Sequence record: PP952733.1
DNA from: Escherichia phage vB_EcoM_H12
DNA length: 64,000 bases
Direction: 5' to 3' (one strand)
Shown: one piece after another, positions 20,222 to 21,749 of the stretch
Layout: each line of letters opens with the position of its first letter
How positions within the stretch are numbered: the first letter of the stretch is position 1
The notes under the pieces: generated by a model
Told to the model about the DNA's origin: nothing
What the model saw: the letters and a program-made list of their open reading frames with translations, nothing else
Databases searched by the model: none
Program-made: the position numbers and the translations under genes

Positions 20222-20360
20222 GATTTTTTATAAGGCTACTGCCATCCTTCCATACCTTACCACACCAAACCACACCATACCGAGCCACACCCTACCAGAC
20301 CCTACCAAACCCGACCGAGCATCACTTAAAAATCCTCTTAGAAGACTCTTAAGTGATGTA
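20222..20360 (-). repeat. structured intergenic element copy A
   Basis: CATCACTTAA ... TTAAGTGATG 10 bp inverted repeat (20320-20358), ~75 nt (GGTNN)n-like tract on minus strand, GGATGGCAGTAGCC box. Confidence 0.6.
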
Positions 20361-20384
20361 ATCGAATTTTAATGTAGCTCCGAT

Positions 20385-20470
20385 TAACTACCCGCACTTT
20401 ACCAAACCTCACCCTACCCTACCAGACCTTACCTAACCGCGCCGTACCTCATTAAAAGACCCTCTTAAAG
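20385..20470 (-). repeat. structured intergenic element, partial copy B
   Basis: Same CA-rich (plus) / GT-rich (minus) periodicity as copies A and C; lacks the perfect 10 bp hairpin. Confidence 0.45.
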
Positions 20471-20477
20471 ACCTTTT

Positions 20478-20506
20478 AAAAAGGAGCCTCCGAAGAGGCT
20501 ACCTAG
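20478..20506 (-). terminator. intrinsic terminator after 20512-20952
   Basis: Minus strand GCCTC-TTCG-GAGGC then TCCTTTTT. Confidence 0.55.
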
Positions 20507-20511
20507 TCAAC

Positions 20512-20952
20512 TTAGAAAGGTTTTCTACGTTGCTTATTAATGTTAGCTTTCATAGCAGCTAAATGGTTTTGCTGTTCAATCAGTCGTGAGCGTTCTTGAT
20601 GGCTAAGTGCCATAGTGTTCACATTCTCAATCGCTTGAGTGGCTTGCTTTAAAGCTCGACCAATCTTGCCAGACATTTTACGTTTTGCAATAGTTGCTTG
20701 ATGCTTAGGTTCAACCACACGATAACCAACACCCATTGAAGCAACCAGATAAATCTTCTCTTCTTTAAGAAGCTTCTCAATAAACTTCTCAAGTCGGTTT
20801 AGACGTGTAAGCGCATAAGCCTTCATTTCATCTTCGTACTTAACAATGTCACCTTGATAAGTTGGCTTCACAATACCTAAGAATGTGTCCATCTCAGAAT
20901 GTGATACAGTGTCACCGTAACTAAACTTTGCTGCTAATGCTTTTGTATTCAT
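20512..20952 (-). CDS. hypothetical protein
   Basis: 146 aa; coupled to 20955-21557; terminator downstream. Confidence 0.45.
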   Translation of the reverse strand: MNTKALAAKFSYGDTVSHSEMDTFLGIVKPTYQGDIVKYEDEMKAYALTRLNRLEKFIEKLLKEEKIYLVASMGVGYRVVEPKHQATIAKRKMSGKIGRALKQATQAIENVNTMALSHQERSRLIEQQNHLAAMKANINKQRRKPF

Positions 20953-20954
20953 AA

Positions 20955-21557
20955 TTAAACGTTACCTTCTGAAATAACTTCTACAGAAAAACGACCAAAG
21001 CGTGGACGCCAATCACCTACACCACAAAGGTTGCCAGCATTTTCCAGAACCATCAGAAGTTCCTCTCTGGTGATTTGCTCTTCATCGAACATCAAACCGA
21101 ACTCTACAGACCAGTCACGGAAGATTGGACGGTAGCTCATAACTCGTGCTGTGCCAATCTTAACAGATTTAGCATAGATAAAGTCTGGATTCTTAGCAAG
21201 TTCTTGTGGGTTTGCTGGACAGTTCTTGATAGTCATTGGGAAGACTACATCTGTCAGCATAATGGCTCGGTCAATTACCTTACCAAGTTTGTTGAGTTTT
21301 GCACCAGACTTGATACAAGCCTCAATCATCTCACCGTTCATAACAAAACCTAACTGCTCATCGTAGTAACAAGAAGTTACCAGTTGACTTTCTGCTAAGA
21401 GCGCATAGTCTTCGTCAGTCTTTTTACGTTTACTGGACAAAGACTTGTGATATTTTGTCAGAGGATTTAACGGGTCTGACAATGTATCGTTATGGCTCAG
21501 GAAAGGACGAGTACCAGTGATTTTGATATTTAACAGTTTCATAGCATTTAGCTCCAC
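20955..21557 (-). CDS. hypothetical protein
   Basis: 200 aa; preceded by long structured leader (copy C). Confidence 0.45.
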
Positions 21558-21620
21558 ACTTTAGTTGATTGTTAAGTTGTTTGTAAAGAACCCTCAACAG
21601 AAGACTCTTTAGAAACTTGG

Positions 21621-21749
21621 TAGATTTTTAACGTGGCTACTACCATCCACCCAGACTTTACCATACCTCACCAGACCATACCTCACCTGGCCGCGCCTTG
21701 CCTTGCCAAACATCACTTAAAAACCCTTTTAAAAGACTCTTAAGTGATG
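21621..21749 (-). repeat. structured intergenic element copy C
   Basis: Identical CATCACTTAA ... TTAAGTGATG hairpin (21711-21749), GT-rich tract, GGATGGTAGTAGCC box, same orientation as copy A. Confidence 0.6.

Follow-up and report, generated by a model that had tools for sequence, protein, structure and literature searches.

We analyzed a 64,000-nucleotide stretch of the genome of Escherichia phage vB_EcoM_H12 (PP952733.1), hereafter the window, in which an earlier note had singled out repeated hairpin and GT-rich elements around two minus-strand genes. The phage is Felix O1-like (Felixounavirus), and its closest match is Escherichia phage fjerdesal (95.7% over 3 kb). We are highly confident that the region at 20218-21807 is a complete type II locus of the Viral Interference Programmable Repeat (VIPR) system, belonging to the SUSP1 clade. 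Along the minus strand, on which all of its features lie, the order is promoter, vrRNA C, vipr, vap1, terminator, vrRNA B and vrRNA A, flanked by a DNA ligase gene and a helix-turn-helix (HTH) regulator gene, also on the minus strand. Each vrRNA gene consists of a 5' hairpin, 12-14 GGY-NN pentamers and a 34-nt 3' pseudoknot. The repeated elements of the note are real, with every listed feature found where it had been placed, and they bracket a two-gene unit as it had described, matching the published vrRNA1-vipr-vap1-vrRNA array architecture.

VIPR, a CRISPR-like system of RNA-guided gene silencing, was described in two bioRxiv preprints (10.64898/2026.04.26.720920 and 10.64898/2026.04.26.720927), in which a locus comprises vipr, encoding a minimal RAMP protein, a vap gene, and ~100-nt vrRNAs, in which 9-16 YNNGG repeats lead into a constant 3' tail; in the SUSP1 clade this tail folds as a pseudoknot. 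In SUSP1, a close relative of the window phage, one vrRNA lies upstream and three downstream of vipr-vap1, and the units are expressed as ~100-nt vrRNAs (10.64898/2026.04.26.720920). Cryo-electron microscopy (cryo-EM) revealed one Vipr protomer per repeat, arranged in a right-handed helical filament, with the guanines flipped out, in syn conformation, and held by protein (10.64898/2026.04.26.720927). According to the preprints, G1 is read by H17 and D177, G2 by R138 and W178, and Y3, recognised by E71, M72, R179 and C173, sits in a pocket that excludes purines; N4 and N5 pair with the target; contacts to the DNA are made by K33, R39, K82, G87 and K88. One target base is skipped per unit, yielding an R-loop triplex, and Vipr binding represses transcription in reporter and phage assays. 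The NN bases matter to function in SUSP1, and its clade's natural targets come together on a satellite phage of E. coli. VIPR has been proposed as the viral ancestor of CRISPR RAMP proteins. As the system is already on record, also for phages whose proteins are 97% identical, the window adds one instance of a known system and no discovery.

The gene vipr (20955..21542, PHROG 4652) encodes a 195-aa minimal RAMP protein. It is the gene that the earlier note had drawn at 20955-21557, with its start at the ATG at 21542 rather than the GTG at 21557. Immediately downstream, vap1 (20512..20952, PHROG 5926) encodes a 146-aa accessory protein, for which the VIPR preprint predicts DNA binding. Vipr is identical at 190 of 195 residues (97%) to the PDB entry 36pp, 'SUSP1 Vipr protein' (E 1.5e-127), and a profile built from 26 diverse homologues matched this one PDB entry (E 1.9e-55). 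The preprint authors define the clade by >90% identity to SUSP1 Vipr, a definition that includes the window protein at 97%. All 13 of the published contact or mutagenised residues are kept (H17, K33, R39, E71, M72, K82, G87, K88, R138, C173, D177, W178 and R179), and Vap1 is identical to the product of the SUSP1 gene beside vipr at 146 of 147 aligned positions (~99%). No Pfam match was obtained for the neighbouring proteins including Vipr and Vap1, nor for the 26 family members, and PHROGs assigned the locus proteins to families of unknown function only; the neighbours of the two genes likewise fell into unknown PHROGs or, in one case, an HTH regulator.

The variable tracts were located by counting, on both strands of the 64 kb and per 60 nt, the GG doublets that keep a 5-nt register. 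Counts of 11-12 of 12 in-phase doublets were reached at three places only, all on the minus strand (20222-20341, 20369-20478 and 21628-21732), and the highest count elsewhere on either strand was 4. A repeat search grouped the same three copies at 62-71% identity and recovered both hairpins, and TRF reported periods of 5, 10 and 15 in the tracts. The doublets, which the earlier note had spaced at 5-8 nt, are strictly 5 nt apart, and the tracts parse as (GGY NN)n with n = 12 (C), 12 (B) and 14 (A). The tract of vrRNA C (21653..21710, 12 YNNGG units) has NN = TT AA AA GC CA GA AT CT GA AT AA CT; that of vrRNA B (20394..20451, 12 units) has NN = GA AC GC TA AA CT AG AG GA TT AA GC; and that of vrRNA A (20252..20319, 14 units) has NN = TC CG TT AG CT AG GT TC AT GT TT GT AA AT. 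Three copies had been noted, one of them as partial; copy B (20360-20451) is in fact complete, with another leader and tail type. Tract and tail together measure 92 nt for C (21619-21710), 92 nt for B (20360-20451) and 102 nt for A (20218-20319), consistent with the ~100-nt vrRNAs reported for SUSP1. By analogy with those expressed units (10.64898/2026.04.26.720920), the suggestion of a small RNA appears essentially right, and that of a recognition site would hold in the sense that each GGY is expected to bind one Vipr protomer. A search of Rfam yielded no match at gathering thresholds in the 64 kb and, within 20100-21900, chance-level matches only at E <=10; the literature was also searched for repeats and non-coding RNA of Felixounavirus, with no relevant result.

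The box GGATGG(C/T)AGTAGCC, present as reported, makes up the 5' half of a 34-nt tail with a pseudoknot. The tail of vrRNA C (21619..21652, GGGTGGATGGTAGTAGCCACGTTAAAAATCTACC) is of type T1 and identical to the SUSP1 vrRNA1 tail, while those of vrRNA B (20360..20393, GGGTAGTTAATCGGAGCTACATTAAAATTCGATT) and vrRNA A (20218..20251, GGAAGGATGGCAGTAGCCTTATAAAAAATCTGCC) are of types T2 and T4. Two interleaved helices make up the 34-nt tail, helix a with 4 bp and helix b with 5-7 bp. Eleven distinct 36-nt tails were aligned without gaps to the structure ..((((..[[[[[[[.)))).......]]]]]]].., in which 94.2% of cells pair, compared with 27-38% when the partners are slid. Nine of the 11 pairs have changed on both sides, and none of 500 shuffles reached the observed score, although the independent covariation events are few, because the eleven tails derive from only four tail types.

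The locus was compared with those of SUSP1, Moogle, Sf18, Mushroom, wV8, D4, fjerdesal and nataliec, making nine with the window. In all nine, GGY is constant and the NN vary; the number of vrRNAs ranges from 2 to 5, with 0-2 upstream of vipr and 2-4 downstream (1 + 2 in the window, 1 + 3 in SUSP1). The conservation and covariation in related phages that the earlier note had proposed as a check were both observed, GGY being kept in the nine loci and the tail pseudoknot covarying. Phage D4, 98.5% identical to the window across vipr and vap1, carries the window's three guides unchanged plus two more. The final 'AT' unit is nearly invariant ahead of GGGTA and GGAAG tails, and the one or two units nearest the tail (e.g. 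AA-AT, TT-AT) are unpaired in several guide-target pairs that were inspected, as seen in guides of SUSP1, Moogle and wV8 and in vrRNA A of the window (20252-20261). These last units behave as part of the constant handle, outside the programmable region.

Targets of the three guides were predicted with the published rule, by which each vrRNA GGYNN corresponds to a target xNN, in ten satellite-bearing E. coli loci totalling 209 kb. Guide C matches at 22 of 24 positions within the large serine recombinase gene of satellites located between tonB and yciI (L134 1745-1780; L137 1746-1781). Guide A, also at 22/24 over 12 variable units, matches a recombinase gene (L130 11008-11043; L131-L133 3609-3644; L138 3607-3642) in satellites integrated in yecE, a DUF72 gene. 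Guide B matches at 20/22 in an intergenic, promoter-proximal position ~50-85 nt upstream of a minus-strand satellite gene (L137 6648-6680). Shuffled versions of the window guides reached maxima of 18-20, with a chance expectation of 4e-6 to 5e-5 for the observed matches; skip lengths of 0, 2 and 3 gave scores of 16-18 only, and the best self-match of the guides within the window was 16-17. In the two coding targets, those of C and A, the skipped bases all fall at codon position 3. As positive controls, guides of SUSP1, Moogle, Sf18, wV8 and nataliec matched at 80-90% in the same satellite (shuffled maxima 17-22). No match to guides C and B was found in the first two satellite loci; their matches came with eight more satellite variants. 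The regions targeted by the three guides are found in 147, 275 and 216 of 5,426 complete E. coli genomes, always on the chromosome. All three guides are accordingly predicted, by sequence matching, to be aimed at E. coli satellite-phage islands.

These islands came to light when the locus was compared by blastn with the 5,426 genomes: only its vrRNA part matched, in unannotated chromosomal DNA of 149 genomes. In strain EC12 (L130), this DNA belongs to a ~12-kb island in a DUF72 gene, which encodes baseplate and tape measure proteins as well as a serine recombinase and an HNH endonuclease and includes 2.6 kb of unannotated sequence; the island is the satellite of the VIPR preprint. The satellite family is present in 568 of the 5,426 genomes and carries genes for a serine recombinase, baseplate and tape measure proteins, and an HNH endonuclease, AP2 factor or adenine methylase. 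It occupies three or more integration sites (yecE/DUF72 beside yecN, tonB-yciI and wrbA-ymdF), each with its own recombinase type, and guides A and C each match one such type.

Three of the satellites each encode a single vrRNA themselves (L130 19971-20037, L134 10383-10449, L129 19995-20056), whose tail is identical or nearly so to the phage T1 tail (GTGGATGGTAGTAGCCACGTTAAAAATCTACC). Since the vipr gene is absent from these three satellites, they would have to use the Vipr of a helper phage; the available text of the VIPR preprint mentions satellite vrRNAs and makes no mention of such a dependence. The guide shared by L130 and L134 (NN = AG CC GA AA CG AG GC TC GG AA TT GC AT) matches TAGGCCTGATAAGCATAGCGCATCAGGCA under a 1-nt skip at 23/26 and 21/26, at L130 24557-24595, between cmoB and torZ, and at L129 22057-22095. 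We take TAGGCCTGATAAGCATAGCGCATCAGGCA to resemble an E. coli REP-type extragenic palindrome, in which case a host repeat present in many copies may be the target of this satellite guide. The degraded L129 satellite has a guide that matches, at 20-21/24, a site conserved close to the end of other satellites (L131 12851-12886; L130 20748-20783; L133 13072-13107; L137 12155-12190), consistent with the satellite-versus-satellite targeting of the preprint. No target of the satellite-encoded guides was found in the window.

Because Vipr is 97% identical to its SUSP1 counterpart, we infer the SUSP1 mechanism for the window locus. One Vipr protomer would bind each repeat, and two neighbouring protomers would sequester G1, G2 and Y3, so that N4 and N5 stay exposed. 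In the helical filament thus built, the NN bases would pair with double-stranded DNA, skipping every third target base, and the R-loop triplex so formed would block transcription, an effect that Vap1 would enhance. By this means the phage would silence satellites that parasitise it.

Several points weigh against this interpretation. Both VIPR source papers are preprints, and the function of the present locus would be transferred wholly from SUSP1 by analogy. The target scan was confined to the ten satellite-bearing loci, so better or different targets may exist. None of the three guides has a perfect match, and guide A, taken over all 14 units, scores 22/28 (79%), just below the authors' 80% cutoff, which it passes only after its last, non-pairing units are trimmed. 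The guides of a genuine VIPR locus could instead act on genes of the host or on other phage genes, or the copy could be decaying and no longer functional. Such a reading would gain from the extent of candidate target DNA covered (209 kb), from the lack of a perfect match within it, and from the VIPR preprint, in which about half of the clade's 41 vrRNAs are without an identifiable target. Against it, the three guides independently match the same element family, in the wobble register, at sites present in 147-275 of the E. coli genomes; vipr and vap1 are intact, every key residue is conserved, and phage D4 retains the identical guide set. We therefore regard this alternative as very unlikely, and retain a functional, satellite-directed VIPR locus as the preferred reading.

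The association between the repeat and the protein was recovered independently from the DNA pattern. We scanned IMG/VR with nine in-phase GG doublets as the sole query, using no protein information, which returned at least 120 stretches; 122 loci in all were then available, the viral contigs among them being L003-L122. The matching contigs have 40-71% GC, most with several tracts of 10-15 pentamers. A profile over ~4,400 pentamers in viral contigs reads N-G-G-Y-N, with C 66%, T 24%, A 6.5% and G 4% at position 4. Among the matches listed, a homologue of the window's 200-aa open reading frame was found in 52 of 80 loci with good tracts; this Vipr homologue lies on the G-rich strand in 51 of the 52, and its reading frame typically ends ~16 nt from the first tract. 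As the loci were gathered without protein information, the protein-repeat module is real. About 28 of the 80 tract-array contigs have no Vipr homologue within 4 kb, many of them being cut by contig ends, and some may represent more divergent VIPR types. Among the viral contigs, L033 contains one unbroken run of 135 pentamers, and the 9 tracts of L107 total 239 pentamers; both greatly exceed the 9-16 repeats given for VIPR.

The base composition of the pentamer bears on the possibility, raised by the earlier note, that the tracts form G-quadruplexes (two-tetrad, thrombin-aptamer-like) or a structured 5' untranslated region acting in cis. GG-N3 repeats formally fit a two-tetrad quadruplex, and copy C does lie between a promoter and vipr. 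However, the base after GG is limited to pyrimidine, and in GC-rich relatives it is mostly C, so that G-C pairing would be favoured over quadruplex formation. The stability of the tract + tail RNAs does not exceed that of their shuffles (z 0 to +0.8), as expected for a guide kept extended by protein. In the cryo-EM structures the guanines are flipped out, syn, and gripped by side chains of Vipr that the window protein shares. Both B and A are located beyond the terminator, lie in no 5' untranslated region and precede no gene of the unit; regulation of flanking genes through a structured leader is not the main function of the elements. With these observations on the other side, we consider a quadruplex or cis-regulatory leader extremely improbable.

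The protein partner and the NN bases speak in the same way to an RNA-only role, as a TRAP-like attenuation site for a ring protein or as a protein-sponge RNA. In Bacillus, the trp leader RNA bound by TRAP carries 11 (G/U)AG triplets separated by 2-3-nt spacers, with one subunit of a closed ring per triplet. A 5-nt period, a conserved triplet and 11-14 units do resemble such a site, but the triplet here is GGY instead of (G/U)AG, and the partner is, in place of TRAP (MtrB), a RAMP protein that forms an open helical filament and no ring. Furthermore, the NN bases match DNA targets under the skip rule, which would be needless for a pure sponge or attenuator, and we give this explanation almost no credence.

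The tracts might instead act as DNA, as a replication origin with R-loop initiation, a cluster of primase sites, or iterons. They are G-rich on one strand and lie beside ligase, polymerase and nucleotide-metabolism genes; T7-type primase sites are GGGTC/TGGTC, and some tract pentamers presumably equal T7 primase recognition sites. Yet only GGY is fixed and the bases flanking it are free, and in unrelated phages the tracts go together with a single family of RNA-binding proteins encoded on their own strand. Nor, moreover, do all Felix O1-like phages that are otherwise syntenic carry the VIPR module: the vipr-vap pair was found in 117 phage records and the wider 3-kb region in 258, so that about half lack the module, unlike an essential origin. 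A DNA-level role can hardly be entertained on this evidence. Chi-like or RecA-preferred GT-rich DNA and a Rho rut site on the C-rich strand were considered and dropped, as was a coding 15-nt repeat, which fails because the tract contains TAG stops and its period is not a multiple of 3.

With the VIPR assignment thus preferred, the 5' hairpins that precede every tract are the part of the locus that falls outside the published model, which counts against the completeness of that model as an account of the window. The leaders of vrRNA C (21711..21749, CATCACTTAAGAG...TTTTTAAGTGATG) and vrRNA A (20320..20358) are of the H type, identified as inverted repeats and by folding: the former gives a 20-bp fold (dG -18.7 kcal/mol, z -7.6) and the latter an 18-bp fold (dG -22.2 kcal/mol, z -6.8). 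The 10-bp perfect hairpin reported earlier exists, and constitutes only the outer part of this 18-20-bp hairpin when G-U pairs are counted. The leader of vrRNA B (20449..20484, TTAAAAGGTC...GGTCTTTTAA) has the shorter L-type stem of ~10 bp (UUAAAAGGUC...GGUCUUUUAA), compared with 18-20 bp for the H type, and was assigned by the consensus hairpin that it has in common with the H type. Alignment of 17 distinct leaders from nine loci produced one consensus hairpin of 17 pairs, six with double-sided changes between H and L; the covariation evidence is modest, because it amounts to essentially one H-versus-L contrast. Within the 64-kb window the leader motif is restricted to vrRNA units, and it was not found in the satellites examined; the idea of a general phage promoter was rejected for these reasons.

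Since tract and tail together equal the reported RNA length, the hairpin would lie outside the mature vrRNA and act in maturation or as a boundary. A plausible though tentative reading, towards which we lean a little less than evenly, is that the conserved hairpin is a dedicated biogenesis or boundary element. It could be removed by double-strand-specific cleavage of the long stem or, alternatively, by cleavage at the conserved AGGGUYUUUUAA; it might otherwise set the 5' limit for growth of the Vipr filament. The text of both VIPR preprints contains no mention of a 5' element, processing or nucleation. If the reading is true, the hairpin would be the functional counterpart of pre-crRNA (CRISPR RNA precursor) processing signals and, in other VIPR types, of the hammerhead ribozymes located between vrRNAs.

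The remaining features concern expression of the locus. A sigma-70-type promoter, TTGACA-N16-TATACT, lies at 21780..21807 (11/12 against the consensus), upstream of copy C as the earlier note had seen, and presumably drives a vrRNA C-vipr-vap1 operon; in published constructs vrRNA1 and vipr were handled as one operon (10.64898/2026.04.26.720920, Methods). A leader-like element read from the sequence (21578..21618, AAAGAGTCTTCTGTTGAGGGTTCTTTACAA), located between the tail of vrRNA C and the ribosome-binding site of vipr, is a degenerate copy of the vrRNA unit leaders. An intrinsic terminator, AGCCTC-TTCG-GAGGCT followed by a T-run, is located 3' of vap1 (20476..20500). Past copy A, a promoter scan found a second promoter, TTGACA-N17-TATTTT, at 20198-20170, ahead of which copy A lies, as had also been observed correctly. 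Directly after the vrRNA A tail, an AT-rich inverted repeat of 13-19 bp (20170..20217, AAATAAGCTATAA...TTATAGCTTATTT), identified together with the promoter scan, forms a hairpin enclosing the -35 box of this promoter, which serves the gene at 19742-20125; it marks the end of the locus. The hairpin could terminate the vrRNA array, or make the next promoter sensitive to read-through.

Vipr and Vap1 are labelled 'hypothetical protein' in all public annotations of related phages examined. In wV8 (2008), fjerdesal and nataliec the tracts are annotated as bare 'repeat_region' only (L127 1059-1116 and 2452-2509 in wV8; L001 5360-5392; L002 3402-3438), a 'DR_4' label also occurring in related genomes, and in phage D4 a 34-aa 'hypothetical protein' coding sequence is annotated over vrRNA1 (L128 1130-1234). 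The record GU169904.1, 'Staphylococcus phage SA1' (147 kb), contains a Felix-like vipr-vap region at 91233-92263 (97.3% identity), and is probably chimeric or mislabelled.

Public annotation thus mislabels the VIPR locus, as a hypothetical protein, a repeat_region or a spurious coding sequence across a vrRNA, and the earlier note had here picked out, from raw sequence alone, guide RNAs belonging to a system first described in 2026. The present analysis defines exactly where three vrRNAs begin and end in a Felixounavirus, tests the tail pseudoknot formally for covariation, and predicts a target for each guide, namely integrase-type recombinase genes in two different satellite families for two guides and a promoter-proximal site for the third; it also brings out a conserved 5' hairpin that is unexplained in the published text. 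The residual interest lies in this hairpin, in the non-pairing terminal units, and in the predicted targets specific to the guides of this phage.

The closest known system is the VIPR locus of SUSP1, which has the same gene order between DNA ligase and HTH regulator genes, the same GGY-NN repeat, leader types and tail types, including an identical T1 tail, and the same predicted target class, E. coli satellite islands. The two differ in the array, with one vrRNA upstream and two downstream in the window versus one and three in SUSP1, and in the phage, a Felixounavirus as against a Suspvirus. The NN sequences of the window also differ from those of SUSP1, and hence the targets differ.

As set out in the preprints, Class 1 CRISPR-Cas complexes, in which Cas7/Csm3 assembles on crRNA, resemble VIPR in the RAMP fold with its RNA recognition motif (RRM) core, G-loop and thumb, in the binding of one protomer per fixed increment of RNA with thumb-induced base flipping, and in a structured, conserved handle that caps the variable guide region. 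Each increment spans 5 nt in VIPR, with three bases sequestered and two pairing, and 6 nt with one base flipped in CRISPR. VIPR further differs from CRISPR in having no repeat-spacer array and no protospacer adjacent motif, in its 1-nt skip, and in repression instead of cleavage. In the window, the repeat search and TRF found no CRISPR array of identical repeats with unique spacers, and no other cas-like gene was seen beside vipr and vap1, Vipr being the only RAMP-like gene product.

The likeness to TRAP and its leader RNA consists in a conserved triplet with a 2-nt spacer, repeated 11 or more times; VIPR differs in the GGY triplet, in the protein fold, in the helical filament, and in a guide function that TRAP lacks. 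The Vibrio phage ICP1 encodes a type I-F CRISPR-Cas system with acquisition and DNA degradation, which targets the chromosomal PLE satellite. ICP1 and the window phage would thus be alike as lytic phages with an RNA-guided system directed at a parasitic satellite, whereas the system of the window would achieve this with two genes, fixed guides and, by analogy with SUSP1, transcriptional silencing.

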